From positions 21,125-85,124 of the forward strand of contig JBDRLW010000003.1 in the NCBI GenBank assembly GCA_043812655.1: a stretch of 64,000 nucleotides of DNA, given 5' to 3'. The number at the start of each line of letters is the position of its first letter. Positions within the stretch are counted from its first letter, which is position 1. A program made the position numbers and the translations under genes. This document shows positions 5,804 through 24,605 of the stretch, one piece after another. The stretch is from a bacterium (GTDB lineage: Bacteria > Margulisbacteria > WOR-1 > O2-12-FULL-45-9 > XYB2-FULL-48-7). The notes under the pieces were generated by a model. That model was not told the DNA's origin, did no database searches, and worked only from the letters and a program-made list of their open reading frames with translations.

Positions 5804-5823
5804 ATTTATTAGCCTCCTTATGA

Positions 5824-7809: not shown

Positions 7810-8710
7810 TAATCATTCCCTTTATTGCTTTAATTAGACCATTTCCAGCAAGGTTGTTTTCTTCCTGATGCCATTTTTGACTTCCTACCCTTCCAGAAGG
7901 GTATCCATTTGCATGAAGATTATGATACTTAATCGGATAACTTATTTTACCCAAAAGAAGCTGAGCAATTGTTTCATTCAATCCGCATTGGCCCTCATGT
8001 TCTTCAATCGTAATTAGCTTCTTCTTGTTTTCTAGACTTGATAAAAGAGCCTCAGGTATCTCATGAATGGGAAATAATCCCACGGACCAAAGCTCAATCT
8101 CGTCTAATAAGTTTTTTTCTTGTAAATCGAATAGATTTAATAATGTTGGCCCTGTTCCAATAATTACAATGCTTTTCCCTTCCTTGATTTTCCTCCATTG
8201 TTTAAATCGATCGATCGGAAAACTTAATTTTCTGGAATTATTTAGTCGCAGATAATTTGGGGCAGGATCGTTCATCATCATGCGCACAACGTCTTCAACA
8301 TCAGAAGCAATAAGGGGAACATAAACCCTCATATTCGGCAACACACGCATGACTGCAATATCTTCCAAAACATGATGTGTACATCCCATAATCCCGTACC
8401 CATAACCTCCGCCATTACCAACAATTTTAACCGGCAGGTTATGCAGGCAAACATCGTTCCTGATCTGTTCATATGGCCGCAAGACCGTAAAAGGCGCAAT
8501 AGAATAAACCCATGGAATAAATCCTTCATATGCCATCCCAGCGGCAACCGTAATCATATTTTGTTCCGCAATTCCTGCATTAATAAATTGACTCCCAAAA
8601 GCAACCCTAACTTCCTCTAAAGCCATATACCCCAGGTCTCCGGTTAAAAATATCATATTTAAATAATCTTCTTTTAAATTAATAATGCTGTTGGCAAGAT
8701 CAGTTCTCAT
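7796..8710 (-). CDS. transketolase C-terminal (pyrimidine-binding) subunit of a split transketolase
   Basis: 304 aa with transketolase Pyr-domain-like sequence, paired with the adjacent TPP-binding subunit. Split transketolases are common in glycan loci. Confidence 0.65.
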   Translation of the reverse strand: MRTDLANSIINLKEDYLNMIFLTGDLGYMALEEVRVAFGSQFINAGIAEQNMITVAAGMAYEGFIPWVYSIAPFTVLRPYEQIRNDVCLHNLPVKIVGNGGGYGYGIMGCTHHVLEDIAVMRVLPNMRVYVPLIASDVEDVVRMMMNDPAPNYLRLNNSRKLSFPIDRFKQWRKIKEGKSIVIIGTGPTLLNLFDLQEKNLLDEIELWSVGLFPIHEIPEALLSSLENKKKLITIEEHEGQCGLNETIAQLLLGKISYPIKYHNLHANGYPSGRVGSQKWHQEENNLAGNGLIKAIKGMINENI

Positions 8711-9533
8711 TTTTCGCTCCTAATCGTTCATATTCGGCGTCAAGATCGCTGCACGCTCGAGCATAGTTTTCTTCATTCATCGGCAAATAGTGCCAATCAA
8801 TGGTATTTTCCATATAACTTATACAATGGCCTTTAATTGTATTACAGATTATAACTTTGGGTAAACTTTTAGCCTTCCCATCACTTAAACACTGATCCTT
8901 CGCCGCTGACAAAGCATCAAAAGAATGGCCATTTGCTGATGCTACATAAAAACCAAATGATTCTAGTTTCATTTGTAATGGCTCCAAAGCCATGACCTCC
9001 TCAGTTCGTCCAAAACCTTGGATATTATTCCTATCTATCAACCAAATGATATTGTTCAATTTATGATGAGAAATAAACAGGGCAGCCTCCCAAATACTTC
9101 CTTCATCCAGCTCTCCATCCGAAGTAACACAAAAGAACATTCTATTTTCCCGCTTAATTTTTGACGCCAGAGCCCTCCCTGCCGAAAGTGACAAACCATG
9201 CCCTAAGCTGCCGGTCGCAAAAGGGATTCCCTTGATTTTATTAGCTGGTGGATGCGCTCCTAAGTAGGTCCCATTCTTATAAAATGAATTAATTTCTTCA
9301 TCCGATATTGTCCCACACTCCGCTAAAACAGAATAGAGCACCGCCGCCGCATGTCCCTTGGAAAGAATAAGACTATCACTTTCTTCCATCCATGCTAGCT
9401 TTAAGAATACTAATATCTCTGTGCATGAAAGCGAGCATCCAATGTGGCCAGCATTATTGTCACGATACATTTTAAGGAATCGCTTTTTAACAGAATGCAC
9501 CTTGTCAATATATTTACTTTTCCCTAAGCTCAT
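8700..9533 (-). CDS. transketolase N-terminal (TPP-binding) subunit of a split transketolase
   Basis: 277 aa. 'GHIGCSLSCTEIL' and 'SKGHAAAVLYSVL' match the transketolase N-terminal TPP-binding region. 'GSLGHGLSLSAG' is a TPP GDG-like motif. Confidence 0.7.
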   Translation of the reverse strand: MSLGKSKYIDKVHSVKKRFLKMYRDNNAGHIGCSLSCTEILVFLKLAWMEESDSLILSKGHAAAVLYSVLAECGTISDEEINSFYKNGTYLGAHPPANKIKGIPFATGSLGHGLSLSAGRALASKIKRENRMFFCVTSDGELDEGSIWEAALFISHHKLNNIIWLIDRNNIQGFGRTEEVMALEPLQMKLESFGFYVASANGHSFDALSAAKDQCLSDGKAKSLPKVIICNTIKGHCISYMENTIDWHYLPMNEENYARACSDLDAEYERLGAKNEN

Positions 9534-11086
9534 CTTTGCCCTACCTTATTATAGTCAAACGCCCACATCCCATTACCGCGCGTAGTTAATATCCCTACCT
9601 TCTTTTTAGTATCAAGAACTATATATCTGCCGCCAATATCCGCTAAAATGTAATCTAGATGCTTGCCAGATGAATAGTCAATAACATCTAAATACCCTTG
9701 TAAAAAATTGTTTACAAACAGTAATTTTCGACTCTCATCAACCGCAAGCGACCTGACAAACATATGAGTATTTATTCTTTTTGTCCACCCTCCTAAATTT
9801 AAATCGTATATATAGACATTCCCCCACTGCGCTGCAACAAAAAGCAAATTACTATCTTTTGCATACTCCATCCATGAAATAATGTTTGGGCCTCTAATCT
9901 TGTCATCATACTTATATTTAATCGCTCCCTTATCAAGGGGCAAGGTGATTTCTTTTATCAATGCCAACGACTTTCCATTTAAAATCATGACCAGCGGCTT
10001 ATCCGGAACAAAGATCGCTATGTTATTGTTTTTCAATATCCGAGCCCCCCAAATTAAATATGGGGCTTCTTTTTCAGCGATTATTGTCCCATTGACATTT
10101 ACGACTGAAATATATCCCGCTTCAGCCATGACAACAATTCTATTGTTTCGGTAGTCTAATAGGACTGAACCATAACCAGAACTCTTCAAGAGCTTCCTGC
10201 TCCAAACAAGCCTTTTACTTTTCAGATTCACTTTATTCAAAGATAAATCATATCGATCGTAATAATAAATGTAACCGTCAATTATAATGAAGTTATGCAA
10301 GTCATAGATACGCATATATGGCTTTGACTCAAGAGATTTATTGTCAAAATAGAATAATCCGCACAAGCCATCAAGTGCATAGTTATTAGAATAGTAAATC
10401 CCTTCATCGTTCAAGGAAGAGGCGTAAAATATATAATCAGAATAAGCCGGCAATCTTTCGCTGCTAATTGCGTCAGATACAATAAATAATTGGTAAAACA
10501 ACAAACAAACCATAAGCCCCAAGTAGATTATTGACGGAACAATGCTTAATTTCTGTGAATATTTAGCTATGATCTCTCTTTGTGATCGGTAGAAGAACAA
10601 GTCGCTTACTGGAAAGGCATAACGCATAAAAAGCTTAAATAGCCTTGTTTTCTCGATCGTTTTGCTAAACATATTTAACTGTGCATTTGCTAAAAAGAAA
10701 AGAAATAATATCATTGCTGACAACTTATTTTCTGGCCTAAAAGTCACAAAGAATAACAGAACGCTAAATATAATAAATGAGACGGAAACAACATCGTATA
10801 ATTCTAAAGATGACATTTTACCCTTAACATATCCCAATCCTTCCAGGATACTAAGATTTAAAAATAAATATATAATTACAAATATCGATGTTTTCACCTG
10901 AAAAAGATGCGTGCTCAATAAATGTCCTGTTAGCAGCGTTTTCATGACGGACCCATGGTAACCTTGCATCAAAATCATATTAACCACAAAGAGCTTGCTC
11001 AACATGAATAATGCTAGAATTGCGGTAATCAATACAGGAGTACGATATACAAACAATAATAATTTAATTTTACTCGTTTTACCCAT
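9530..11086 (-). CDS. integral membrane protein (about 5 N-terminal TM helices) with C-terminal beta-propeller-like repeat domain; function unknown
   Basis: N-terminal 200 aa strongly hydrophobic. The C-terminal ~300 aa is rich in Y/D/N/G repeats (YIYDLN, YLDVIDYSSG) suggestive of YVTN/WD-like blades. Operonic with the flippase. Confidence 0.4.
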   Translation of the reverse strand: MGKTSKIKLLLFVYRTPVLITAILALFMLSKLFVVNMILMQGYHGSVMKTLLTGHLLSTHLFQVKTSIFVIIYLFLNLSILEGLGYVKGKMSSLELYDVVSVSFIIFSVLLFFVTFRPENKLSAMILFLFFLANAQLNMFSKTIEKTRLFKLFMRYAFPVSDLFFYRSQREIIAKYSQKLSIVPSIIYLGLMVCLLFYQLFIVSDAISSERLPAYSDYIFYASSLNDEGIYYSNNYALDGLCGLFYFDNKSLESKPYMRIYDLHNFIIIDGYIYYYDRYDLSLNKVNLKSKRLVWSRKLLKSSGYGSVLLDYRNNRIVVMAEAGYISVVNVNGTIIAEKEAPYLIWGARILKNNNIAIFVPDKPLVMILNGKSLALIKEITLPLDKGAIKYKYDDKIRGPNIISWMEYAKDSNLLFVAAQWGNVYIYDLNLGGWTKRINTHMFVRSLAVDESRKLLFVNNFLQGYLDVIDYSSGKHLDYILADIGGRYIVLDTKKKVGILTTRGNGMWAFDYNKVGQR

Positions 11087-11128
11087 TTTTAATCTCCTCT
11101 AATTCTAGCAAATTCAGATAATGATCAA

Positions 11129-12661
11129 TCATGATATTCTACCTTCGATCTCATCCATCATTTCCTCTTCTTCAATTGCAAGACTAAAGCGGTTTAATGG
11201 CCGTCTGAAAGCCTGATTTAATACCCTTTTGAGAACAACAAAATCGGTCAGTCCCAAACCAATAACAGAATACACAACGAGCGCAAAGGCGGAAATTATC
11301 CAGGAAAGCAATAAGGATACTGGAAAAGCAAGGAAAACAAGTTTGGTTACAACCAGAATCCCTATCCCCAGCAAGGATACTAGCGTAATTTTCTTCCAAG
11401 GATATATAATCCTTAATATTTTCACCGACACCATTTCGGCAATAATAAATGTCAGCAAATATGCAAATACTGTCACCCAGGCAGCACCTAATATACCCCA
11501 TTTTGGGATTGCAAATATATTAAGTGCCACACTTGTGCCTCCGGCGATTAAAGTAATGATCGGAATAAGATAGGTGTGCTTTTTGAAAAACAATGGGCTG
11601 ACAGCAAACATATACAGGCCTCTAAATATACTCGAAAATACAAGGATCCCAGCTACTCCGGATGCCGCATAATAGGCCTGGGAAGCCATTACTTTAAGTA
11701 TCAGGCTGGAAAATAAAATAAAACCCAGAACCATTGCCAGCACTGCAACATACCAATAGCCGATAATATCCGCATTAATTGCGATAGCCTTATTTTCGTT
11801 TTTTTCTGCTGATTCAATAAAATATGGATTGTAAGCCATATTAAAACAACCAACCAGCAGCAATGGCACCGAAGCGATGCGGCTGGCTAGGGAAAATAGC
11901 CCGATATCAGAAAGAGGCACAAATTTCTCTAGTATAATTTGATTTGCCCCGGTAAACATGAAGGTGCCTAATGAATGAGGAATTAGAGGTAAAGAATAGG
12001 CTAAAGCCAGCGGAACAAAGCCCCAAACAAACCTCCTGCAAAACCAATCTCTAATCAACCAAAAAGCCACCAGGCAACCAATTAGGGCCGCCAATAAGTT
12101 TGCCCAGAAAAAACCCAACATCCCAACCTGTTTATAAACAACAAGGTAAACCGAAAGCAAAATAGTCGCTAGTAAAACAACGACATTTAAAACAAAGAAA
12201 TGTTTGGCCATTTGCATAACTTTAAAAATGGCTGTCGGCGCTTGATAAAGAGCAATCAGCACAACAGTAATCAAAGACAAACGAAAATAAGGTTGATAAG
12301 TTAACCCGCTATTAGGGTAGACAAAGCTAACAAGCTGATTACCAAAAAGCTCTAAAAGCAGGAAGCTAGCGATCATCATTGCAATCATTATTAAAATAAC
12401 TGTGCTTAGAAACTCCCTAGCCTTTTGTTTTTCACCTTTTGCTATAAACTGCAATACATATCTGGCAATCCCACTTTGGAGCTGCAAAGCAATAAATATT
12501 CCGACAATCGCCGTGAAAGAGCTTACCAAGCCAATAACGGCATATTCTGCCGGCGTCAAATATCTTGTATACAAAGGCAAAAGAAAAAAACCAGCTACAA
12601 GCGGCAGGATCAACGCAATTGTATAAATACCAGTATTAGTCAATATTTTCAGTTTTGACAT
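11129..12661 (-). CDS. wzx: oligosaccharide/polysaccharide flippase (Wzx, MOP superfamily)
   Basis: 510 aa with about 12-14 predicted TM helices. Composition typical of the Wzx/RfbX family. Located in the glycan operon. Confidence 0.6.
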   Translation of the reverse strand: MSKLKILTNTGIYTIALILPLVAGFFLLPLYTRYLTPAEYAVIGLVSSFTAIVGIFIALQLQSGIARYVLQFIAKGEKQKAREFLSTVILIMIAMMIASFLLLELFGNQLVSFVYPNSGLTYQPYFRLSLITVVLIALYQAPTAIFKVMQMAKHFFVLNVVVLLATILLSVYLVVYKQVGMLGFFWANLLAALIGCLVAFWLIRDWFCRRFVWGFVPLALAYSLPLIPHSLGTFMFTGANQIILEKFVPLSDIGLFSLASRIASVPLLLVGCFNMAYNPYFIESAEKNENKAIAINADIIGYWYVAVLAMVLGFILFSSLILKVMASQAYYAASGVAGILVFSSIFRGLYMFAVSPLFFKKHTYLIPIITLIAGGTSVALNIFAIPKWGILGAAWVTVFAYLLTFIIAEMVSVKILRIIYPWKKITLVSLLGIGILVVTKLVFLAFPVSLLLSWIISAFALVVYSVIGLGLTDFVVLKRVLNQAFRRPLNRFSLAIEEEEMMDEIEGRIS

Positions 12662-12673
12662 ATCTAAATCTCA

Positions 12674-13189
12674 TTATGGCTCGATCCTAAACATTATCTG
12701 TCGATCATTAACAATATGATCTGTAATAAATCCGACGTTCTTAAATAGTTTCTGCGAAGCTAGATTATCAACATCGACCCCCGCCTCTATTTTCTTCAGT
12801 TTTAATGAGAAAAACGCATAATTAATAACCTCTTTTAATGCTTCAGACGCATAACCCTTCCCCCAATATGCCTTGTCCCCGATCGCAATGCCAACCGTGC
12901 CAAACCCATTCTCCCGATCGATTGATGAAAACGTTATATTTCCGATATGCTTCTCGTTAGTTTTGTCAAAAACACCAAGTAGCAACCGCTCCTTAACCCC
13001 TTCATAGGATCGGACATAGGCTTGCACCATATCAATATCTTGTCTTATATCCTTAACCGATAGGAAGTGATTGACCTCAGGATCATTCAACCAATCGACA
13101 TAGCGTTGTGTAACATCAACAACCTTTAACGGCCTAAGATTGACTCTATTGCCGCTTATCATCTTATGCGGCATCCCTATAATATTCAT
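12674..13189 (-). CDS. GNAT family N-acyltransferase
   Basis: 171 aa. GNAT motif A-like 'VGIAIGDKAYWGKGYASEALKEVINYAF'. Confidence 0.6.
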   Translation of the reverse strand: MNIIGMPHKMISGNRVNLRPLKVVDVTQRYVDWLNDPEVNHFLSVKDIRQDIDMVQAYVRSYEGVKERLLLGVFDKTNEKHIGNITFSSIDRENGFGTVGIAIGDKAYWGKGYASEALKEVINYAFFSLKLKKIEAGVDVDNLASQKLFKNVGFITDHIVNDRQIMFRIEP

Positions 13190-13685
13190 GCGCCAACATG
13201 CTAATTATGATCGTATCCATATATTTGCCATCCCAAAAAGTCGCTTCTCTCATAATTCCTTCCTGAATAAAACCACATTTTAATGCGAGCTTAACCGCCC
13301 CCTCATTAAAAGCAAAAGCTTCCCCCCAAAGGCGGTGTAAATTATATTCACCAAACCCCTTCCTCTTAAAAAAATCATAGATTTCAATCCCTAAAGCAAC
13401 ATCTTCGGTAGGACTAATTGATTGACCAAGATAATACGAAATTTCCGCAGAACGATCTTTCCAATTAATATGCGTTAAGCCACAGAGCCCAACCGGCTTT
13501 TCATCCATCAGAATCAGGAACATGTCATCCACCTTAGAAGTAGAAACCCTTTCAAACCAGTTATTTTGGTTGACCATATTAAGAAGCCTATATTCGCGAC
13601 AATACTTCCTAACCTTTTCTTGATTCCTCCAATCTCTTAGTAATGGAAGGTCCTCCCTTTCCATTTGCCGATACTTAATATCCAT
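13164..13685 (-). CDS. GNAT family N-acyltransferase
   Basis: 173 aa, GNAT fold. 'IEIYDFFKRKGFGEYNLHRL' is motif-A-like. Overlaps the downstream GNAT gene, consistent with an operon. Confidence 0.55.
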   Translation of the reverse strand: MDIKYRQMEREDLPLLRDWRNQEKVRKYCREYRLLNMVNQNNWFERVSTSKVDDMFLILMDEKPVGLCGLTHINWKDRSAEISYYLGQSISPTEDVALGIEIYDFFKRKGFGEYNLHRLWGEAFAFNEGAVKLALKCGFIQEGIMREATFWDGKYMDTIIISMLAHEYYRDAA

Positions 13686-13705
13686 TTCATCCTCCTTTAA
13701 AATAA

Positions 13706-14404
13706 TTACAAACCGCCATCAATGGCTATTTTCGCTCCGTTGACATAAGGAGATCTGATTAAAAAATCAATTGCATTAACGATATTTGAGACTTTCCCAA
13801 ATGATTTTGACGGAATCTTATCTAAGATACTCTTTTGGTCATTTTCACTTAGCGTTTCAATTAAACCAACATCAAAATAACCCAACACCAACAAATTCGA
13901 AGTAATATTAAAACGCGCATATTCCTTTGCTAGGACACGTGACATACCAATCAGCCCAGTTTTAGTTGTGGAGTATGCAATGGTGCCTATCCGTCCCTCC
14001 ATGCCTACAACGGAAGAAACATGAACAATACGTCCCCAGCGTTCGTTAATCATAATAGGAAGCAAGGCCTTGGTCAGTAAAAAATCACCTTTTAAATTAG
14101 TTGCTAGCACTTTATCCCAATCAAGCTCGGAGTAATTAGCCGCCAATGCATCAATACTAGACGCTGCCAAATTAATTAAAGTAACTTTTTTTAGCTCACT
14201 TCTACGCTTCTCCACAAATGCATTTATAGCCGTAGAGTCAGTGATATCTAATTTTTCAATTGAAAACCCGTTCATCGCAATCACTTTTGGCTTGGTTTTA
14301 TTGTAAATCCCAATAACCTGATCCATTGCCAATAATTTGCTCAAGATTTCTTTTCCGATTCCACCAGACACACCGGTTAGAATGATCATTGATTTTCTCC
14401 CCAC
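13706..14404 (-). CDS. SDR family oxidoreductase, 3-oxoacyl-ACP reductase (FabG)-like
   Basis: 'ILTGVSGGIGKEI' matches TGxxxGIG. Catalytic 'YSTTKTGLIGMSRVLAKE' matches YxxxK. Confidence 0.65.
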   Translation of the reverse strand: MGRKSMIILTGVSGGIGKEILSKLLAMDQVIGIYNKTKPKVIAMNGFSIEKLDITDSTAINAFVEKRRSELKKVTLINLAASSIDALAANYSELDWDKVLATNLKGDFLLTKALLPIMINERWGRIVHVSSVVGMEGRIGTIAYSTTKTGLIGMSRVLAKEYARFNITSNLLVLGYFDVGLIETLSENDQKSILDKIPSKSFGKVSNIVNAIDFLIRSPYVNGAKIAIDGGL

Positions 14405-15351
14405 TTAATCAAACAACCGCCCCAAGACAAGCCTACTCCAAACCCAATTAACATAACTTGATCCCCCTTTTTTAGACGCTTCTGTTCGGCGGCATCCTTA
14501 AGGGCGATCGGAATTGAAGCGGAAACAGTATTACCAACCTTTTGACAATTGATAAAGACTTTTTCTTCTGGCAGCTGTAGTCGACGAATAATATTTTCCA
14601 TAACAAGCTTGCTGGCTTGGTGAAAAACAAATAAATCAATATCTTCAATGGTTTTCCCGGCTTTTTCTAATAAAGAATTAACACACTTGGGGACCCTATC
14701 CATAGTAAACATAAAGACCTTCGCCCCGTCCATGACCAACTTATCCCCTTCCTCTTTTCTAGCCCCGCTTGATGGAACAATTAAGCTACTAAAGCCAGAG
14801 CCGTCAGTCCCCAACTCAAAGGGGCCAAGCAAGTCAGCTTTGCTCTGGGCTAACACGATTGCGGCTCCTCCATCACTAAATAATGGTCGACAGGTTCGAT
14901 CTGATTTATCAATATATTTTGTATAAGTTTCACTGCAAACGATCAACCCTTTCCTTGCTATTCCGGCCTCTAGCATCGAACCACCAATGGCCAGAGCGTA
15001 AACAAAACCTGAGCAACCAAGATTGACGTCAAAAGCAGCACAATCCTTTTTAATCCCCAGACGATCCTGCAGAATACAAGCTGAAGTTGGCAAGGCATAG
15101 TCAGGTGATTGCGTAACCATAATAATAAAATCAATATCATGCCTTGAATGAACAGATGAAAACAACTTTTCCGACGCAATTAATGCCAGATCAACAGCTG
15201 TTTGCCCTGGCTCAGCTATATGACGGACATAAACACCTGTTTTCTTCTCAATATCATCAATCCGCCAATCCGGATTATCATTTTTAAGAACCTTCCCATC
15301 CTCAGTTTTTTCAGGAAGATAGTATTCAATTGCCTGTATCTCAACTTTCAT
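14386..15351 (-). CDS. 3-oxoacyl-ACP synthase III (KAS III, FabH-like)
   Basis: Active-site Cys context 'DVNLGCSGFVYAL' and 'FVFHQAS' (His). Asn region in 'GNTVSASIPIAL'. Length 321 aa. Confidence 0.7.
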   Translation of the reverse strand: MKVEIQAIEYYLPEKTEDGKVLKNDNPDWRIDDIEKKTGVYVRHIAEPGQTAVDLALIASEKLFSSVHSRHDIDFIIMVTQSPDYALPTSACILQDRLGIKKDCAAFDVNLGCSGFVYALAIGGSMLEAGIARKGLIVCSETYTKYIDKSDRTCRPLFSDGGAAIVLAQSKADLLGPFELGTDGSGFSSLIVPSSGARKEEGDKLVMDGAKVFMFTMDRVPKCVNSLLEKAGKTIEDIDLFVFHQASKLVMENIIRRLQLPEEKVFINCQKVGNTVSASIPIALKDAAEQKRLKKGDQVMLIGFGVGLSWGGCLIKWGENQ

Positions 15352-15371
15352 TATTGCCTACTTATAAATAT

Positions 15372-15617
15372 TTATATTAAGCTATTATCTTTCAAGATGT
15401 GCATAATCCCCTTAACCGAATTGGCCGTCGCCATCTCTTTTATTGCTGCGATCTTTCCATCAAAAAGCTCATCTAATGATGAAAGAATCGCCAAATGCCC
15501 TAAAGAATCCCATTCTTCCAACCCTCCGACCATGCTATCTAACGTCAATTTTTTACCTTTGAGGCTCAATGCCTTTTCCATCGCCGCTAACACTTCACTC
15601 TCTGTTTTATTTACCAT
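15372..15617 (-). CDS. acyl carrier protein-like (phosphopantetheine attachment)
   Basis: 81 aa acidic helical protein. 'LTLDSMVGGLEE' resembles the ACP DSL/DSM Ser attachment motif. Confidence 0.5.
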   Translation of the reverse strand: MVNKTESEVLAAMEKALSLKGKKLTLDSMVGGLEEWDSLGHLAILSSLDELFDGKIAAIKEMATANSVKGIMHILKDNSLI

Positions 15618-15635
15618 AACAAACCTCCTTATAAT

Positions 15636-16361
15636 CTAACTATTATAGGCAACATAAATATCAGTAAAACAAAGGACCAGGCCAAACTTCTCTGTAAATT
15701 GGACATATCCCCTTTGTTGCAGCGCTTTTAATGCCCCAAGATGTTCGCTCATCTCTTTGGGGAGCGGCCATACATCATGGGCTAAACGTTCAACATGTGA
15801 AAAATGATCGTTAGCAACTTTAACGATTTTATCTACATCAGAAAAGGAAATAATCGGGAAAAATAATCGGCCACCATGATTAAGATACTTTGCTGCTTGT
15901 TGAATTACTTGAACGATAAGAAATGTTCCATCCGCCCCAGCAACACAAGGAACATTGTTGAACCAAGGGGAAATTTTTGCCGCTTCTTCAGAAACCCCAG
16001 AAATATCATCAACAATGCAATCAAATTTTTCATCACTCCACGGCTCAAAAAGAGATCCGGCTCTTGCCTCCACAGGACAATTATACTTTTTAGCATTGAG
16101 ATTGACTGATTCAACCGCTTTTTCGCTCAGATCTGACGCATAGAGGGATCCTTCTATTAAGCCTAGTTTATGCAACGCTATTCCAACCGCGCCACAACCA
16201 CACCCAAGGTCAACCGTTTTTCCAGGGCTTTTAACATATCCCTTTACAGCCTTAACTAAACTTTGGCTAGTTCCAGTTGGAACAAATACTCCTGCCGGCA
16301 CATTTAACAATAATTCTTCGGATGGTCCATACTTAAAAGTATAGGAAGCCTGTTCTAGCAT
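15636..16361 (-). CDS. class I SAM-dependent methyltransferase
   Basis: SAM motif I 'VDLGCGCGAVGIAL'. Motif post-I acidic 'YASDLS'. Confidence 0.5.
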   Translation of the reverse strand: MLEQASYTFKYGPSEELLLNVPAGVFVPTGTSQSLVKAVKGYVKSPGKTVDLGCGCGAVGIALHKLGLIEGSLYASDLSEKAVESVNLNAKKYNCPVEARAGSLFEPWSDEKFDCIVDDISGVSEEAAKISPWFNNVPCVAGADGTFLIVQVIQQAAKYLNHGGRLFFPIISFSDVDKIVKVANDHFSHVERLAHDVWPLPKEMSEHLGALKALQQRGYVQFTEKFGLVLCFTDIYVAYNS

Positions 16362-16373
16362 ATTAATTCCCCC

Positions 16374-17402
16374 TCATATTGATTTCCAAGTTATCCACTC
16401 ATCAGCCTTAATGGATCTTTTTGTTTTTTTACCGACAACTTTATCAAAATATTTCGGCTGAATACCAAAACTTGGTCTTTTAACAATCAGCATTTCATCT
16501 TTAATAATTGTCCCTTTCGGGATTTCTGTTTTAGCGTGGATACTGCGGCGACCAATTTGATAATTCTCCATCTCACAAGCTCTTGGGCCAAGTTTTTTAC
16601 CTGACCCAATCGCTGCTTCAACCTCACGGATTTGGCTTACAAGCGCTTTTAATTCTTTCGGCTCAACAGCAAAGGGATGATCGGGCCCCTCCATCTTTTT
16701 ATCAAGCGTAAAATGCTTTTCGATTACTTTCGCTCCCATCGCAACGGCGGCAACAGAGATATGAATTCCCAAGGTATGATCTGATAAACCAGAAATAACA
16801 CCAAGAGAACCGCTAATATTCTTCATTGCGGATAAATTCATAATTTCGGCCTTTGCCGGATAAGCGGAAGCGCACTGCAGGAAAATAACTTTCTTATTCC
16901 CTGCGTTAATACAGGTTGAATAGGCATCTTTAATTTCTTGCATTTTTGCTAGACCGGTAGATATGATTATTGGTTTTTTTTTCTTTGCAATAAATTTGAT
17001 CAAGGGAATATCAACCAACTCAAAAGAGGCGATTTTATATAGATCCACGTATGGAGCTAGTTCATCAACCGCCTCCGCGTCAAAAGGAGTGGCAAAGAAC
17101 GTTACATTCTTTTTATTGCAATAGGCTTTAAGCTCAGGAATCCATTTACGCGGCAGTTCAATGTCTTTTATCATTCTCCATAAGTCTTTTTTGTAATAAG
17201 AATGACGTGGGACATTTTTAGAATACAGCTTTTCAGCTGAATAAATCTGAAACTTAACCGCATTTGCACCAGCCTCTGCTGCTTTATCGATCAGCTTTTT
17301 TGCAGTTCTTAAGCTCTTGTTATGATTTGCCCCAATATCTACAATAATAAAGCATGGATCGTCCCCGCCAATCATAATGTTTCCAACTTTAATTCTGTTC
17401 AT
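16374..17402 (-). CDS. N-acylneuraminate-9-phosphate/nonulosonic acid synthase family (NeuB/PseI/LegI-like) with C-terminal SAF domain
   Basis: 'IGGDDPCFIIVDIGANHNKSLRTAKKLIDKAAEAGANAVKFQIY' matches the NeuB N-terminal TIM-barrel signature. The C-terminal 'SAF'-like region has the 'IKDEML' pattern. Confidence 0.75.
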   Translation of the reverse strand: MNRIKVGNIMIGGDDPCFIIVDIGANHNKSLRTAKKLIDKAAEAGANAVKFQIYSAEKLYSKNVPRHSYYKKDLWRMIKDIELPRKWIPELKAYCNKKNVTFFATPFDAEAVDELAPYVDLYKIASFELVDIPLIKFIAKKKKPIIISTGLAKMQEIKDAYSTCINAGNKKVIFLQCASAYPAKAEIMNLSAMKNISGSLGVISGLSDHTLGIHISVAAVAMGAKVIEKHFTLDKKMEGPDHPFAVEPKELKALVSQIREVEAAIGSGKKLGPRACEMENYQIGRRSIHAKTEIPKGTIIKDEMLIVKRPSFGIQPKYFDKVVGKKTKRSIKADEWITWKSI

Positions 17403-17410
17403 GTTTGTCG

Positions 17411-18721
17411 TTAATCCAACCTCTTAAACCCTGCATGGCAAACCGGCCCCTTTAAACTAGACTCCACCTTAGCCGACTGAATGGCACTGGCTATAACAGC
17501 AAATGCTTCATCCACTGCAAAAAGATACTTATCTACAATCTCCGGCGAATGGGCAAAGGACGCGTAGAAAGAATTTGTCGCTAGGCACCCTTTTTCAAGC
17601 ATAATTTGGGTAAATAAGGTTTTTATGGCCAGAGCATTATCGTATTTGAACGAAAAATGACCCAATGGTGGAATTCCTTCAACAGAGATGATAATTCGAT
17701 GTTTTTTCGCCAAGTTGTCCCATCCCGCTTGGACCATTTTTCCAATCTTGATCAAATGCGCCGGCACATTTTCTTTTTGCATTTTCGCAATTGTTGCCAG
17801 AGCGGCCACCGGCCCAATTCTTTCTGTCCAGTATGTACTACTAATAAAGCTCTCCTGGGCCACCTGCATTACTGATTTTTTACCTATTATGGCGGCCATC
17901 GGAAATCCGTTACTGATCCCTTTGGCAAATACTGCGATATCCGGCTCAAACCCATATTTTAAATGTGCACCACCAACATTTAACCGCCAACCAGAACTTA
18001 CTTCGTCACAAATCATCACGATCCCCAGCTCCTTGGTTGTTTTTCTAATCGTTTCAATAAAACCAGGCTTCGGTTCATGATTCCTAACGGCTTCGGTAAC
18101 AACACCGGCAATTCTTCCCTTATATTTATTTAGGAGTGCCAAATATTCTTCTGTGTCATTGTAAATAAATGGTTTCGCTGTTCCCTTTAATCCTCTAGGT
18201 ACCCCTTTTGGGGAAAGCCCTGGCATTAAATGTCCGTCTAAGGCCGCATCATCCGCTAAGTTTGATGATAAGTACCAATCATGCCAACCGTGGTATCCTG
18301 AAAATAAGATAACATCCTTGTCAGCGGCCGCTCGAGCAATCCTGACCGCAATGCTCATCGCCTCTCCACCGGTTCGGGAATATCTAACCATCTCCGCCCA
18401 AGGATGTAATTCACATAAAAGTTCAGCTAACTCAACGTCTTCATAGCAATTTAAAGTTGTAGATGACCCTTTTGCAATAGCCTGAGTTACTGCGGCATTA
18501 ACATCGTCATCCGAATAACCCAAGATACTAGCGCCTACTCCCATAAAACTCATATCAATATATTTTTCACCATCAAGATCCCAAATCTCACACCCTTTTG
18601 CTTTTTCATAGTACGCAGGCCAGAGGTCGGGCAGATGCATCTCTGGTCTTTTTGATAAAAGTTGGGTTCCTCCAGGGATAATTGTCTTTGCTTTGTTATA
18701 TAAGTCTTGTGAAATCCCCAC
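17411..18721 (-). CDS. class III PLP-dependent aminotransferase (glutamate-1-semialdehyde aminomutase-like)
   Basis: 436 aa. 'GGTQLLSKRPE', 'RYSRTGGEAMSIAVRIARA' and 'CDEVSSGWR' are HemL/class-III-like motifs. Confidence 0.7.
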   Translation of the reverse strand: MGISQDLYNKAKTIIPGGTQLLSKRPEMHLPDLWPAYYEKAKGCEIWDLDGEKYIDMSFMGVGASILGYSDDDVNAAVTQAIAKGSSTTLNCYEDVELAELLCELHPWAEMVRYSRTGGEAMSIAVRIARAAADKDVILFSGYHGWHDWYLSSNLADDAALDGHLMPGLSPKGVPRGLKGTAKPFIYNDTEEYLALLNKYKGRIAGVVTEAVRNHEPKPGFIETIRKTTKELGIVMICDEVSSGWRLNVGGAHLKYGFEPDIAVFAKGISNGFPMAAIIGKKSVMQVAQESFISSTYWTERIGPVAALATIAKMQKENVPAHLIKIGKMVQAGWDNLAKKHRIIISVEGIPPLGHFSFKYDNALAIKTLFTQIMLEKGCLATNSFYASFAHSPEIVDKYLFAVDEAFAVIASAIQSAKVESSLKGPVCHAGFKRLD

Positions 18722-18723
18722 TA

Positions 18724-19653
18724 TTAGTTCCCCACCTTTGTTGCCATGCCTAGTTTTTCCTTATAGATGTCAATTAGGTGCTGGTAAATAAGATCTACTC
18801 TCTCATGTTGGAATGCTACAAAACTTAAATTTAATTTTTCGATTTTTTCCAGATCACCAATCGATTGACGAATTTCCTGAAAATTATTCAGACTATCAAC
18901 GCCAATAATGACTTTATCTACATATTTATTAAGTAAAACAAAATTAATACATAAAGCCACTTTTGAGATGTGTTCTTGGGTAGAAAGCCGGCTAAGCTCT
19001 TCCACCTTATCCTTAATGGCAATCAAGGGACCGGTAAATTCAGCCTGATTACGAAAAGCAATCCCTTGCAGGAAAACCGACCGCACATTGATCTCAATGC
19101 CTAAACCATGTAATTTCTCAAAATATGGCCCAAATCGCTGATCAAACACACTATAAGGGACCTGAACAATATCTAAATTAATGCCTTGTTCAAGAAGTAC
19201 ATCAAGCTCATCCGGCGAATAAATCGATAAACCAATTTTTTTTATCCTCCCTAGCTTTCTTAACTCTACAAGCTGCGGCCATAATCCCGGATTATCGATA
19301 TGATATTGATAATTATGGATCAAATAACCATAAAACGAATCAACCCCCAATGTATCTAGTGAAGTTTGAATTATCGCTTTAACTTCAGTAGCAGAAACGT
19401 TACCAGCTTTTGAGATAATACTAAAATATTTTTTATTAGCTTTAATATATTTTCCAATAACAGCCTCGCTCTCCCCATATAGGGCAGCCGTATCAAGCGT
19501 ATTTACCCCGGCTTGGGCTGCCACATCTAATATTTTAAAAACATCATCAATCGGGACTTTTCCCCGTTGATTATTAATCCCATAATCAAATCCAAATTGG
19601 GCGGTTCCTAAAGTTATCCTATTCATTACTTCCATATCCGCCCATGCCCCCAA
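18724..19653 (-). CDS. aldo/keto reductase
   Basis: 'LGTAQFGFDYG', 'LDTAALYGESE' and 'KIGLSIYSPDEL' are AKR signature regions. Confidence 0.65.
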   Translation of the reverse strand: MGAWADMEVMNRITLGTAQFGFDYGINNQRGKVPIDDVFKILDVAAQAGVNTLDTAALYGESEAVIGKYIKANKKYFSIISKAGNVSATEVKAIIQTSLDTLGVDSFYGYLIHNYQYHIDNPGLWPQLVELRKLGRIKKIGLSIYSPDELDVLLEQGINLDIVQVPYSVFDQRFGPYFEKLHGLGIEINVRSVFLQGIAFRNQAEFTGPLIAIKDKVEELSRLSTQEHISKVALCINFVLLNKYVDKVIIGVDSLNNFQEIRQSIGDLEKIEKLNLSFVAFQHERVDLIYQHLIDIYKEKLGMATKVGN

Positions 19654-20390
19654 TCCACCCCAATCTCTTCTACGGGTTTGCGAAGTTGCTTGTTTTTATC
19701 CCAATAATCAATAATTTCTTCGAGCTTAATCAGTCGATCCTTCCCCTTTAAGTCCCTATAGATGTAGCGACAAAACACTAAGTCTTCTGGGTAATCTACG
19801 GTTATCCGAATATCCGATCTTCTTAATTTTGATTCCGGACTTACCATCAAAACCTTAAAATCATCCTGATTATCAAAGATATAGGAGGTAATTAATTCTT
19901 TGTTGCGCTGTGTTCCATTCTTGTGGGATTTTTGCATCGATCCAAGGTCCATAATTGCAAAACTCGCCCCGTCAGGAAGCTCAGAAATGCTAGATAAGTG
20001 TAGCTTATCTTCAACGAACTTGGCAAATAACTCGTCGATTCGATCGTAATATAAATATGGGGATTCGGTTGAGTCAAGCAAGGCAACCTCAGTTCCAAAT
20101 TTTTTAGCCGCCTCAATAATCCTGCCAAGCATGTCTTCTTCACTGCCAAACATATAGTTCCATCCCTGTTTTTCGGCTAATTCGGCAAACCCATAATTTT
20201 GCTTCCCTTCTGCAATGGCTAGGCAGATTGAATCAACACTCTTAATCTGCTTAATGTGTTTAACTAGGTATTCAAGAATTGTTATCCTATTTTCAATGTC
20301 TAGAAATTGTAGGGGTTTCCCATACAAACGGGTTCCGCCCACCCGGCAAGGTAAAATAGCATCAAATTTAATGTTCTTCATTTTTTCCAT
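19626..20390 (-). CDS. cytidylyltransferase, acylneuraminate cytidylyltransferase family (SpsF/PseF/NeuA-like)
   Basis: N-terminal 'AILPCRVGGTRLYGKPL' matches the nucleotide-binding motif of SpsF/NeuA-type CMP-sugar synthetases. Length 254 aa. Confidence 0.55.
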   Translation of the reverse strand: MEKMKNIKFDAILPCRVGGTRLYGKPLQFLDIENRITILEYLVKHIKQIKSVDSICLAIAEGKQNYGFAELAEKQGWNYMFGSEEDMLGRIIEAAKKFGTEVALLDSTESPYLYYDRIDELFAKFVEDKLHLSSISELPDGASFAIMDLGSMQKSHKNGTQRNKELITSYIFDNQDDFKVLMVSPESKLRRSDIRITVDYPEDLVFCRYIYRDLKGKDRLIKLEEIIDYWDKNKQLRKPVEEIGVDWGHGRIWK

Positions 20391-20399
20391 TTATGAAAG

Positions 20400-21188
20400 T
20401 TAAAACAAGCTTTTTGAGATGCCTCCATCGATCTGGATCGTCGTTCCTGTTATACCACAAGCCTGTTCAGAGCATAAAAATGTAACCAAATCACCCAATT
20501 CTTTTGGTTCCTGGTATCTCCTTAGAGGTAGATCCTTTACCGCATTCTTTTCAAATTCTTCGACCGTAATATTTTGTTTTTTTGCCGCATTAGTCATTAG
20601 CTCAATTGCCCTGTCAGTTTTAAAAGCACCCGGACATATATTATTAATTGTAATATTATCTTTGATCAATTCCCTAGATAGAGATTTCGCCATACTAATA
20701 ACCCCAGTTCTAAAAACGTTTGAGAGGATTAGAGTTTCGGCTGGTTCTTTAACCGTTAGCGAGGTGGAATTTATAATTCTCCCCCATTTATTCTCCTTCA
20801 TCACCGGAATTACCAGGCGACACAGCCGAACAACATACATCAATAATGAATTAAAGGCTTTTTCCCACTCCTCATTCTTAAGATCAAAAAAGCTTCCTGG
20901 AGGTGGACCACCCGAATTATTCACTAATATATCAATTCGGCCAAACTTATTAAGGGTTTCCTTTACGATTCGCTCGTTATCAGTTTGCGATGACATATCT
21001 GCTTCTAAAGCTAAAACACTTACCCCAAGATCAGCCAGCTCTTTTCTGGTTGTATCTAGCGAGGGACGGTCATTTGCACAAATCGCTATGGCCACTCCTT
21101 CCTTGGCAAGTTGAAGAGCACACCCTTTACCCAAGCCCTTACTCGCTCCCCCAATTAACGCAACTCTGCCTTTTAATTTTAGATCCAT
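20400..21188 (-). CDS. SDR family oxidoreductase
   Basis: 'GRVALIGGASKGLGKG', 'NNSG' and a YxxxK region are classical SDR features. Confidence 0.65.
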   Translation of the reverse strand: MDLKLKGRVALIGGASKGLGKGCALQLAKEGVAIAICANDRPSLDTTRKELADLGVSVLALEADMSSQTDNERIVKETLNKFGRIDILVNNSGGPPPGSFFDLKNEEWEKAFNSLLMYVVRLCRLVIPVMKENKWGRIINSTSLTVKEPAETLILSNVFRTGVISMAKSLSRELIKDNITINNICPGAFKTDRAIELMTNAAKKQNITVEEFEKNAVKDLPLRRYQEPKELGDLVTFLCSEQACGITGTTIQIDGGISKSLF

Positions 21189-21190
21189 AA

Positions 21191-24540: not shown

Positions 24541-24605
24541 GTTGCTATTATAAATAGGTATGCAAAACTTGTCAAGAGGCTATCAATAGTAGTCAACAGT
24601 AGTCA

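Follow-up and report, generated by a model that had tools for sequence, protein, structure and literature searches.

Organization of the locus

The window, that is, the whole 64-kb stretch of DNA that was analysed, carries a single, tightly packed operon on the minus strand, of which pseB is the first gene. Five of its open reading frames had been singled out in the original prediction as a KAS III, an ACP-like protein, a FabG-like ketoreductase (KR) and two GNATs. All five lie on the minus strand at the coordinates then given, and their identities are borne out by the list of open reading frames, the profile matches and a predicted fold. A methyltransferase gene is situated just outside the segment described at that time. 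The features needed for the description are the following.

24547 to 24575, minus strand: candidate promoter of the operon, reading TTGACA-17-TATAAT without a mismatch, within the gap of 285 bp upstream of pseB
23334 to 24320, minus strand: pseB (TIGR03589, 521 against a cutoff of 407.75)
22198 to 23331, minus strand: pseC (TIGR03588, 528.9 against a cutoff of 423.5)
17411 to 18721: class III aminotransferase, the second amine-forming enzyme of the operon
16374 to 17402, minus strand: NeuB/PseI-type nonulosonic acid synthase (PF03102, 3.5e-87), immediately upstream of the cassette
15636 to 16361, minus strand: SAM-dependent methyltransferase of the HemK/PrmA/RsmC fold class
15372 to 15617, minus strand: a dedicated acyl carrier protein (81 aa) from a divergent family, assigned by profile and predicted fold, with Ser38 as the predicted phosphopantetheine site
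14386 to 15351, minus strand: KAS III, a FabH-like condensing enzyme (PF08541 and PF08545; triad Cys113, His244, Asn274)
13706 to 14389, minus strand: FabG-like 3-oxoacyl reductase (SDR/KR; PF00106, 9.8e-35); the listed open reading frame runs to GTG 14404
13164 to 13685, minus strand: GNAT1, a PseH-like N-acyltransferase (PF13420, 1.8e-13; TIGR03585, 1.7e-20)
12674 to 13189, minus strand: GNAT2, a GNAT of the RimL/Acetyltransf_3 type (PF13302, 1.7e-25)
11129 to 12661, minus strand: Wzx-type flippase (PF01943, 1e-16), immediately downstream of GNAT2
1230 to 2090: polysaccharide deacetylase-like gene

The genes overlap or abut, as had been described: the stop codon of the KAS III gene overlaps the start of the KR gene, and the other gaps measure 12-20 nt. 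The overlap has the form ATGA and contains ATG 14389, which is probably the start of the KR, the listed GTG at 14404 being too far upstream. An AGGAGG Shine-Dalgarno sequence is found upstream of both the ACP and the GNAT1 genes, 7-8 nt before the former. Judged by its sequence, this is an operon with translational coupling. The candidate promoter agrees with the consensus at 12 of 12 positions, which is a consensus match alone and no evidence of function. The GC content of the locus is lower than that of its flanks. The arrangement can hardly be due to chance, given that dozens of independent contigs show this same gene set.

The surroundings are those of a nonulosonic-acid and flippase operon, in agreement with the original prediction. 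PseB and PseC are recognized at the equivalog level, and genes of the NeuB, cytidylyltransferase and Wzx types are present. PseB and PseC presumably supply UDP-4-amino-4,6-dideoxy-beta-L-AltNAc, the acyl acceptor. The NeuB/PseI-type synthase scores 312 with the PseI model TIGR03586 and 352 with TIGR03569, both below cutoff. The operon also contains a second NeuB-like gene, an aldo-keto reductase, the class III aminotransferase and a further SDR, and no PseG-like gene was found in the 64-kb window by tblastn with queries from E. coli and from L004, another locus with the cassette. Because of this missing gene and the additional ones, the final sugar may not be simple Pse.

Condensing enzyme and ketoreductase

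For the KAS III, the score with the NCBIfam subfamily model NF006829 exceeds the threshold (286.9 bits, cutoff 249), and that with the narrower fabH model TIGR00747, also of the subfamily type, falls below it (254 against a cutoff of 292.1). Its C113, H244 and N274 align with C112, H244 and N274 of E. coli FabH, to which it is 31% identical, and this Cys-His-Asn triad is invariant in 93 of 93 KAS III homologues. Leu87 takes the place of Phe87 of the E. coli enzyme. The best solved relative is the KAS III of Burkholderia pseudomallei (3gwa, 257 bits); E. coli FabH gives 149 bits. The gene resides in a glycan operon and not in a plsX-fabH-fabD-fabG-acpP cluster. The sequence does not reveal the specificity for the primer, and hence not the chain length either.

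The KR shares 33% identity with E. coli FabG, and the TGxxxGIG motif, the catalytic Ser and the Tyr-x3-Lys motif all align. It falls below the cutoff of every FabG model (for TIGR01830, 166.6 against 297.75).

The acyl carrier protein

The 81-aa protein has no match in Pfam even at E<=10, PF00550 included, and none in NCBIfam at E<=0.01, ACP models included. Despite failing these family models, it is, by its profile and its predicted structure, an acyl carrier protein. A profile built from 28 homologues matches solved ACPs (2lml at 8.5e-6 and 2kwl at 8.9e-4). The AF2 model (pLDDT 87) is a four-helix bundle with helices at residues 6-17, 38-51, 60-64 and 68-77, so that Ser38 is placed at the N-terminus of helix 2. 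When this model was compared with known structures using Foldseek, 49 of the 50 matches listed were ACPs or complexes with an ACP subunit (TM 0.55-0.72).

The assignment had been made to depend on a conserved ACP serine being visible in an alignment, and such a serine is present. The sequence W-D-S-L-G is invariant in the alignment of the carrier proteins, and D37-S38 is retained in all 87 non-redundant homologues. With hhalign, D37-S38-L39 falls onto D35-S36-L37 of E. coli AcpP, in a match that is itself weak (probability 28%, E 6e-4).

The methyltransferase

The product of the fourth core gene has a class I SAM fold of the "MTS" type. It lacks the (N/D)PPY motif, the position of which is occupied by I-V-D-D-I-S-G, or more generally by (I/V)-D-D-(I/V)-(S/A)-G. 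Among 41 homologues D119 and G122 do not vary; D118 and S121 are kept in at least 90%. Profile matches to solved methyltransferases end before the C-terminal half of the protein. Because the gene is constantly linked with those for the ACP, KAS III and KR, the enzyme most likely acts on the acyl group or its amide, and not on a particular sugar.

The GNAT acyltransferases

GNAT1 matches the PseH model TIGR03585 over positions 2-154 of 156 with 73.7 bits, below the cutoff of 93.1; GNAT2 reaches 30.2 bits with the same model. The genomic context is the one expected of a PseH, with pseB, pseC and a NeuB/PseI-type synthase encoded in the same operon. Solved PseH was absent from the phmmer matches of the two GNATs, the best of which were SpeG-type GNATs. 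No sequence similarity was detected between GNAT1 and GNAT2, and the usual pyrophosphate-binding loop can be read in both. GNAT1 could use acetyl-CoA as canonical PseH does, the sequence not distinguishing between an acyl-ACP and an acyl-CoA donor.

Orthologues of GNAT1 adjoin the cassette in two other loci, L010 (68%) and L001 (57%). In L009 and L010, the closest relatives, no counterpart of GNAT2 was found next to the cassette, and GNAT2 would be an accessory specific to this locus. There is a weak similarity (23% identity, E 6e-6) between GNAT2 and the GNAT domain that E. coli O165 carries as a fusion with PseG. GNAT2 may be responsible for another N-acylation, or it may be an ordinary PseH that transfers acetyl groups.

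Conservation of the cassette

The unit that is conserved consists of the methyltransferase, ACP, KAS III and KR. The original prediction had grouped the KAS III, ACP and KR with both GNATs. The first three and GNAT1 do recur together; GNAT2 does not, and the methyltransferase had been missed. In a metagenome scan anchored on the methyltransferase, the ACP, KAS III and KR were all present in 18 of 18 informative non-redundant loci, in five different core gene orders. A KAS III pattern scan of species-representative genomes returned 36 loci, none of them from Pseudomonas; at loci with a KAS III of at least 55% identity, the methyltransferase accompanied it in 11 of 13 and the ACP in 13 of 13.

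The nearest relatives of the KAS III, at 55-76% identity, belong to MAGs of WOR-1, Verrucomicrobia, Nitrospinia, Gammaproteobacteria, Nitrospiraceae, Spirochaetota, Bacteroidota and Planctomycetia. Each of these relatives adjoins the same methyltransferase or ACP, and usually sugar genes as well. Overall, the MAGs in which the cassette is found are assigned to nine or more phylum-level groups, SAR11 among them, and the methyltransferase has 232 representatives at the 50% identity level. No member of the family was found among plasmids. The four-gene cassette is thus widespread in uncultured bacteria.

The transferase that adjoins the cassette varies, being a GNAT, a hexapeptide/PglD-like protein or an AAC(3)-like protein. 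Such interchangeability is to be expected if it is the cassette that provides a sugar N-acyltransferase with its acyl donor. In 9 of the 18 informative loci a GNAT is found no more than 6 kb from the cassette, and in 5 no acyltransferase can be recognized within this distance. A NeuB-type gene lies within the same distance in 12 loci and is lacking there in 6. One locus, L006, combines the cassette with a gene set of the NDP-4-amino-6-deoxyhexose type instead of NeuB-type genes. L004 carries the full PseF/PseG/GNAT/NeuB set, its sole GNAT being directly beside the cassette with no other transferase.

Proposed function

Taken together, the sequence evidence makes it fairly probable that the genes form a self-contained acyl-donor cassette within a pseudaminic-acid-type polysaccharide operon. 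The product would be a short 3-hydroxyacyl-ACP, probably C4 and possibly methylated. In the proposed pathway, the carrier protein would be phosphopantetheinylated on Ser38 and loaded with malonate by two enzymes encoded elsewhere. The KAS III would then condense malonyl-ACP with a primer that is a short acyl-CoA, most likely acetyl-CoA, and the resulting acetoacetyl-ACP would be reduced by the FabG-like KR to (R)-3-hydroxybutanoyl-ACP. Neither a dehydratase nor an enoyl reductase was found among the scanned operon open reading frames that match a family, which makes the 3-hydroxyacyl stage the logical end product. The PseH-like GNAT1 would transfer the acyl group to the 4-amino group of UDP-4-amino-4,6-dideoxy-AltNAc, and this amino group would become N7 of the nonulosonic acid after the NeuB-type condensation. 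The sugar would finally be CMP-activated, built into the repeat unit and flipped by Wzx.

The product may differ from plain 3-hydroxybutanoyl, because bacteria reported to make Pse5Ac7(3Hb) need neither a dedicated cassette nor a methyltransferase. It is conceivable, though we offer this tentatively, that methyltransferase, ACP, KAS III and KR constitute an undescribed, horizontally mobile cassette, from which a methylated short beta-hydroxy or beta-keto acyl group is passed via the non-canonical ACP to interchangeable sugar N-acyltransferases. The methylation would be performed by a HemK-fold enzyme that has lost NPPY, with 3-methoxybutanoyl, a 2-methyl derivative and an N-methyl amide as candidate products. 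If so, it would represent a new class of nonulosonic-acid or amino-sugar decoration in environmental bacteria.

Alternative explanations

The GNATs could instead be ordinary acetyl-CoA enzymes carrying out PseH-type N-acetylation, with the acyl group of the cassette attached elsewhere, for example as an O-acyl group, on the amine formed by the class III aminotransferase, or through an acyltransferase activity of the KAS III-like enzyme. PseH, the best family match of GNAT1, is an acetyl-CoA enzyme, and the pyrophosphate-binding loop is intact in both GNATs. The five loci lacking a recognisable acyltransferase near the cassette would also be accommodated, and the second amine-forming enzyme and the polysaccharide deacetylase-like gene are available in the window. 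It is nevertheless unlikely that the acyl group goes elsewhere, as in L004 the single GNAT has no other transferase to share the task with, and unrelated N-acyltransferase families replace one another beside the cassette, which argues that the adjacent one uses its product. The full condensing triad in all of the KAS III homologues speaks against a role as acyltransferase.

An apparent resemblance in gene content (methyltransferase, GNAT, ACP and ketosynthase) to polyketide loading modules of the CurA/AprA type raises another alternative, in which a GNAT would decarboxylate malonyl-ACP, the methyltransferase would modify the product, and the outcome would be a small lipid or polyketide and not a sugar substituent. 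The six loci without a NeuB-type gene within 6 kb fit such a role; even so, we regard it as quite improbable. Judged by indirect evidence, there is hardly any likelihood that the KAS III, KR and carrier are housekeeping proteins that initiate type II fatty acid synthesis and are found in a glycan operon by chance; the original prediction had named this case, for the KAS III/KR pair, as one that would contradict it. The catalytic residues of the KAS III and KR are intact and NF006829 is passed, but both enzymes fall short of the narrower FabH and FabG cutoffs (TIGR00747, 254 vs 292; TIGR01830, 167 vs 298) and the carrier matches no ACP model. A tblastn search of the 64-kb window with PlsX, FabH, FabD, FabG, AcpP, FabF and PseG-like queries from E. 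coli or L004 returned only the KAS III and SDRs, leaving fabD, fabF, plsX and acpP without a match there. Furthermore, the close relatives of the KAS III are scattered across phyla, at identities far above the one shared with E. coli FabH, and the lowered GC content of the locus likewise argues against a housekeeping set.

Comparison with known systems

The original prediction had cited producers of N-(3-hydroxybutanoyl) Pse as a precedent, and this holds for the product but not for the mechanism. The O-antigen cluster of E. coli O165 and the psaABCGHF genes of A. baumannii encode the same pathway (PseB, PseC, a PseH-type GNAT, PseI and PseF) and are reported to make Pse5Ac7(R)3Hb, that is, N7-(3-hydroxybutanoyl) pseudaminic acid. 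They do so without a KAS III, KR, ACP or methyltransferase, the donor having to come from general metabolism; in E. coli O165 it is plausibly the FAS intermediate (R)-3-hydroxybutanoyl-ACP. The E. coli O165 GNAT, being fused to PseG, resembles GNAT2 and not GNAT1.

The initiation of type II fatty acid synthesis by FabH, FabG and AcpP has the same chemistry, folds and catalytic residues as the proposed condensation and reduction. The cassette differs in that its enzymes are only 31-33% identical to those of E. coli, its carrier lies outside PF00550, FabD, FabZ, FabI and FabF do not accompany it, and it is found in glycan loci with a patchy distribution across phyla.

A dedicated supply of a short hydroxy-acyl group exists for anthrose in Bacillus anthracis (antABCD) and for the perosamine tetronate of Vibrio cholerae O1 (rfbKLMNO, including an ACP). 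In both, an unusual hydroxy-acyl group is N-linked to a 4-amino-6-deoxy sugar, as is proposed for the cassette. Anthrose is made by a route of the enoyl-CoA hydratase type with a CoA donor, and the V. cholerae substituent by one of the acyl-CoA-ligase type. To our knowledge, neither route involves condensation by a KAS III, and neither has a HemK-like methyltransferase linked to it.

ACP and FabG-like genes also occur among pse or other glycan genes in islands for flagellin glycosylation, in Aeromonas (group II) and in Enterobacteriaceae, where their role has been taken to be the addition of an acyl or lipid component (PMC7874193, PMC4875605). Besides the ACP and FabG, these sets comprise an AMP-dependent ligase and LuxC/LuxE, by which a pre-made fatty acid is activated and reduced, whereas a KAS III and a HemK-like methyltransferase are absent from them.

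By analogy, the closest precedent, and a genetic one for the proposed scheme, is the viosamine island of P. syringae pv. tabaci (vioA, vioM, vioT, vioS, vioB and vioR as well as acp), where vioS encodes a KAS III, vioR a KR, vioB an acetyltransferase and vioM a methyltransferase (PMC3927599). Likened by gene content, the two have the same parts clustered with amino-sugar genes: a KAS III, a KR, a small ACP, an N-acyltransferase and a methyltransferase. VioM, with 241 aa, is of the same length as the methyltransferase encoded at 15636-16361. The island produces N-(3-hydroxy-1-oxobutyl)-2-O-methyl-viosamine; deletion of vioR abolishes the sugar, and that of vioM lowers the mass of each glycan by 14 Da (PMC3927599). 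The acyl acceptor of the island is dTDP-viosamine, destined for flagellin, whereas the polysaccharide operon described here, of the Wzx type, would have a Pse-type nonulosonic acid in that role. The transferase VioB bears the name viosamine acetyltransferase, where the present locus has a GNAT, and in P. syringae O-2 of the sugar is the assigned position of the methyl group, unlike the methylation of the acyl group or amide proposed here. Since none of the 36 loci in the KAS III scan comes from Pseudomonas, the viosamine-island and cassette enzymes are at best distant relatives. Homologues of the viosamine island are also found in the flagellin glycosylation island of P. aeruginosa PAK (PMC3927599).

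Organization of the locus

Judging from its sequence, the region most likely encodes a dedicated acyl-donor cassette for N-acylation of a sugar of the pseudaminic acid (Pse) type. The functional unit most likely consists of a methyltransferase (MT), an 81-aa acyl carrier protein (ACP), a KAS III and a FabG-like reductase (KR, of the SDR type), together with one adjacent transferase, GNAT1. The N-acyl groups on nonulosonic acids and amino sugars set antigenicity, phage receptor specificity and immune recognition, and the source of the acyl group is still a gap for most such decorations. The locus points to a compact, portable four-gene cassette, which appears to equip a glycan pathway with a dedicated source of acyl groups.

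The original prediction of an acyl cassette for sugar N-acylation is partly supported. Its choice of ACP, KAS III and KR holds, but not the unit that it proposed, which had two GNATs and missed the MT gene lying just outside its coordinates. All five of its open reading frames (ORFs) were found in place, and the GNAT, SDR and KAS III identities were upheld by Pfam and NCBIfam.

Features of the cassette region and of the operon start (window positions)
12674-13189, minus strand, GNAT2 (Pfam/NCBIfam GNAT)
13164-13685, minus strand, GNAT1 (Pfam/NCBIfam GNAT)
13706-14404, minus strand, SDR/KR (Pfam/NCBIfam SDR; mechanical ORF with a GTG start at 14404)
14386-15351, minus strand, KAS III (Pfam/NCBIfam KAS III)
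15372-15617, minus strand, 81-aa carrier protein (ORF call)
15636-16361, minus strand, methyltransferase of the MTS/PrmA/HemK type, 18 nt upstream of the ACP gene
24547-24575, minus strand, TTGACA-17-TATAAT, a perfect sigma-70 consensus in the 285-bp gap between a Wzz-like gene and pseB

Nearly all genes in the initial 30 kb of the window are on the minus strand, and the GC content there is 0.36-0.45, compared with 0.44-0.51 over most of the remainder. Read directly from the DNA, the intergenic gaps are 12-20 nt long. The stop codon of KAS III and the likely KR start, ATG 14389, share an ATGA overlap; this ATG is probably the true start, the mechanical GTG at 14404 being too long. The 81-aa gene and GNAT1 are preceded by AGGAGG ribosome-binding sites. 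The sigma-70 consensus is the sole 12/12 match within 11-25.8 kb and is a likely promoter of a glycan operon of about 24 kb. Given the short gaps, the overlap, the ribosome-binding sites and this consensus, the genes appear to belong to a single long operon that extends downstream from pseB (24320).

Wza-like and Wzz-like genes are situated upstream of the operon. Its members PseB and PseC both exceed their equivalog cutoffs and are followed by a block (16374-22207, minus strand) of a divergent NeuB-like gene, an SDR, a CTP_transf_3-type cytidylyltransferase, an aldo-keto reductase, a class III (GSA-aminomutase-like) aminotransferase and a second synthase of the NeuB/PseI type. The MT gene precedes the other five genes of the cassette region, after which the operon continues with a Wzx flippase, a large membrane protein, a split transketolase and glycosyltransferases. 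By its predicted gene content this is a Wzx-type polysaccharide locus centred on a pseudaminic-acid-like sugar. The block that separates pseC from the cassette has a syntenic equivalent in a WOR-1 MAG (L010, 1159-6986) and in a metagenome contig (L051). Given this block, and with no PseG-like gene found within the 64-kb window, the nonulosonic acid may be more elaborate than Pse. A similar pair of aldo-keto reductase and class III aminotransferase is listed for the Aeromonas group I islands.

The transketolase of the same operon, past the flippase, has its N- and C-terminal halves encoded by separate genes (7796-9533, minus strand). Also downstream of the flippase is a fused NAD-epimerase/dehydratase-GT2 protein (5824-7809, minus strand). 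A 518-aa protein (9530-11086, minus strand), to which no family could be assigned, has an N-terminal half that is hydrophobic as judged by eye and a faint beta-propeller match in its C-terminal half. From its position it might be the polymerase or another membrane protein of the pathway.

Genes for flagellar export are found at a distance of 30 kb, on the opposite strand. The segment 50777-61717 (plus strand) encodes trehalose genes (an otsB-like phosphatase and a TreT-like synthase) followed by FlgG-like, FliM, FliP, FliR, FlhB and FlhA proteins, and the gene content indicates that the organism is probably flagellated. Flagellin therefore stays a possible target of the Pse-type sugar, despite the Wzx, Wzz and Wza-type genes of the operon.

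The carrier protein, ketoacyl synthase and reductase

The 81-aa protein has no Pfam or NCBIfam match, even at E<=10, and a single-sequence PDB search was insignificant. A homology search gave 31 relatives, nearly all 78-86 aa long, in whose alignment W36-D37-S38-L39-G40 is invariant. The profile of this alignment matches solved ACPs (2lml at 8.5e-6, 2kwl at 8.9e-4, then many AcpP entries). The AlphaFold model is a confident four-helix bundle (pLDDT 87) with Ser38 opening helix 2, and 49 of the 50 Foldseek matches listed are ACP structures or complexes with an ACP subunit. In hhalign the D-S-L motif aligns with D35-S36-L37 of E. coli AcpP, at a low probability of 28%. The conserved serine on which the original prediction depended is present: D37 and S38 are invariant in 87/87 non-redundant sequences from all loci gathered. 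On this profile and predicted structure, the 81-aa protein is assigned as a carrier protein of a divergent family, a nature that the single-sequence searches, being insignificant, did not reveal.

The KAS III scores above the cutoff of the NCBIfam subfamily model for KAS III. Its Cys113, His244 and Asn274 align with the catalytic triad of E. coli FabH, and this Cys-His-Asn triad is invariant in 93/93 relatives. Among solved structures, a second KAS III of Burkholderia pseudomallei (3gwa) is the best relative, scoring 257 bits, as against 149 bits for E. coli FabH. Because Leu87 replaces Phe87 of E. coli FabH, the primer size is not readable from the sequence. For the SDR, alignment with E. coli FabG (33% identity) matches both the cofactor motif and Ser/Tyr/Lys. 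Since neither a dehydratase nor an enoyl reductase was matched among the operon ORFs scanned, chain processing should stop at the 3-hydroxy stage. In two MAG loci (L042, 8001-8967; L015, 1477-2779) the KAS III is split into two ORFs, which may reflect a frameshift, misassembly or a decaying cassette.

These catalytic residues would also be expected if the three proteins were the housekeeping FabH, FabG and ACP of the organism. The evidence against this is indirect. The KAS III fails the narrower fabH model TIGR00747, the SDR falls below the cutoff of every FabG model, and the carrier protein falls outside PF00550. Whereas the canonical E. coli cluster has fabD, fabF, plsX and acpP, none of these was found in the window by tblastn with E. 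coli PlsX, FabD, FabF and AcpP. Identity between phyla reaches 55-76%, always in the same cassette context, but is only 31% to E. coli FabH, and the GC content of the island is below that of its flanks. The ORFs of 406-409 aa and 245 aa at 52-56 kb, suspected to encode FabF and FabG, proved for the most part to be genes for trehalose and flagellar functions; no family matched the 245-aa ORF.

Linkage to a methyltransferase

Contigs encoding homologues of the ACP carry the GNAT, KAS III, KR and ACP genes in varied order, always with a methyltransferase of 240 aa. The linkage was quantified by two independent surveys. In the one anchored on KAS III, one genome per species was scanned, giving 36 loci. 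The loci with at least 55% KAS III identity number 13 (9 new and 4 found earlier) and come from WOR-1 (76% and 73%), Verrucomicrobia, Nitrospinia, Methylobacter, Nitrospiraceae, Spirochaetota, Bacteroidota and Planctomycetia MAGs. The ACP gene adjoins KAS III in all 13, KR is present in nearly all and MT in 11/13. The MT-ACP-KAS-KR set is still present at 37-40% identity, in loci from SAR11/Pelagibacter. A group of planctomycetes, more distant still, has ACP-KAS-SDR and lacks the methyltransferase. The survey anchored on MT covered metagenome contigs and gave 80 loci, 68 of them non-redundant, of which 18 were informative, having at least 3.3 kb on both sides. ACP, KAS III and KR are all on the same strand as MT in 18/18. 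Five core orders were found: MT-ACP-KAS-KR, KAS-KR-MT-ACP, KR-MT-ACP-KAS, ACP-KR-MT-KAS and MT-KR-ACP-KAS. Conserved content combined with shuffled order is strong genomic evidence that the four proteins work together. The cassette is common in uncultured lineages, including WOR-1/Saganbacteria, Verrucomicrobia, Nitrospinia and SAR11.

The MT family has 232 representatives at the 50% identity level (E<=1e-30), and the entries looked up are all metagenomic or MAG-derived. In databases its members (P0032-P0301) are named "predicted RNA methylase", "precorrin-6B methylase 2", "release factor glutamine methyltransferase", "PrmA" or "TrmK", so that the cassette is mis-annotated as an RNA, release-factor or precorrin methylase plus FabH/FabG. 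The names appear to stem from the shared SAM-binding half and are probably wrong. Since MT accompanies ACP, KAS and KR across different sugar contexts, we infer that it would act on the acyl unit or its amide and not on a specific sugar. A BioC-like role, O-methylation of malonyl-ACP, was set aside, as the closest structural neighbours are mostly N-methyltransferases. Four small soluble proteins and a GNAT offer a testable handle on the acyl route from ACP to nucleotide sugar, and on the role of a HemK-fold MT without NPPY.

Several cassette loci have B12-binding radical SAM genes in or near them (L043, 6333-7706; L008, 4350-5888; L001, 17122-18666); in L043, from SAR11, the gene sits between MT and ACP. 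These genes hint that the acyl group or the sugar may be modified further.

Comparison with known systems

Among known systems, the viosamine island of P. syringae pv. tabaci is by analogy the nearest precedent; it contains the KAS III vioS, the reductase vioR, a 69-aa ACP, the acetyltransferase vioB and the 241-aa methyltransferase vioM and, with vioA and vioT, produces N-(3-hydroxy-1-oxobutyl)-2-O-methyl-viosamine on flagellin (PMC3927599). The sugar is lost in a vioR deletion, a vioM deletion reduces each glycan by 14 Da, and the P. aeruginosa PAK island has homologues of all seven genes (PMC3927599). The parts list is alike by description; in the window, however, the presumed acceptor is Pse-type and the transferase a GNAT. 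Matches to the MT in a plasmid collection were all PrmC-like, and no Pseudomonas name occurs among the 120 MT homologues listed. The ten MT cluster representatives of 241-242 aa that were looked up stem from metagenomes or MAGs. The general idea has been seen before: there is this genetic precedent, and FAS-like genes have repeatedly been noted in glycosylation islands. The gain is thus incremental. The flagellin glycosylation islands of Aeromonas (PMC7874193) and Enterobacteriaceae (PMC4875605) have a different FAS-like set, namely ACP, FabG, AMP-ligase and LuxC/LuxE. The sfmABCDE genes of S. oneidensis were rejected as the same module: they include an SDR, a methyltransferase and a NeuB-like gene, but KAS III and ACP are not listed. 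No functional study of C. jejuni fabH2/acpP2 was found in the literature.

The N-(3-hydroxybutanoyl)-Pse product to which the original prediction appealed is real, but its reported producers lack a dedicated cassette. E. coli O165 is reported, in the reference list of PMC7685785, to carry Pse5Ac7(R)3Hb. Its cluster consists solely of pseB-pseC-pseF-pseG(GNAT fusion)-pseI, and KAS III, KR, ACP and methyltransferase are all absent from 10979-16408 of the O165-family cluster of E. coli 2012C-4227 (L126). The annotated pseG of the latter encodes 512 aa, and its C-terminal GNAT domain weakly resembles GNAT2 of the window (23% identity, E 6e-6), not GNAT1. A. baumannii is credited with Pse5Ac7RHb from psaABCGHF alone (PMC9676051). 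A dedicated cassette is therefore unneeded for plain 3-hydroxybutanoylation, which leaves room here for a different acyl group, such as a methylated one; the product may be other than plain 3-hydroxybutanoyl. A literature search for methoxybutanoyl and 2-methyl-3-hydroxybutanoyl sugar substituents gave nothing on nonulosonic acids among the papers listed, the sole glycoconjugate among them being 3-methoxybutyryl on rhizobial lipid A.

Acyltransferases and sugar context

The acyltransferase near the cassette is the part that varies. Among the 18 informative loci, a GNAT occurs within 6 kb in 9, a hexapeptide/PglD-like enzyme in 2, an AAC(3)-like enzyme in 1 and an Acetyltransf_9-like protein in 1; no recognisable acyltransferase was found in that range in the other 5/18. 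Pfam scans of the neighbours uphold these family calls. Clear orthologues of GNAT1 adjoin the cassette in L010, a WOR-1 locus with full synteny (68%), and in L001, a marine metagenome locus (57%). In L009 and L010, the closest relatives, GNAT2 has no counterpart next to the cassette. The two GNATs have no detectable mutual similarity and were rejected as tandem paralogues.

Of the informative loci, 12/18 have a NeuB-type gene no more than 6 kb from the cassette. In L006 the cassette instead adjoins a nucleotidyltransferase, a 4,6-dehydratase-type gene and DegT aminotransferases, and it is thus portable between amino-sugar pathways. Such portability fits a supplier of acyl donors for whichever N-acyltransferase adjoins.

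Downstream of the cassette in L001, positions 7906-12144 encode a FemAB-like protein, a PLP enzyme, a second 81-aa ACP paralogue, a second SDR and an Acetyltransf_9-like protein, which looks like a second ACP-based module without KAS III. In L012, from Nitrospinia, the cassette is flanked upstream by a DUF4910/DUF2172/HTH_47 protein (1484-2803) and downstream by an aminoglycoside-3-N-acetyltransferase-like protein (5538-6404). The same kind of flanking pair is found in L039, from Pelagibacteraceae (5704-6996 and 9609-10445), and the pairing thus recurs in two distant lineages.
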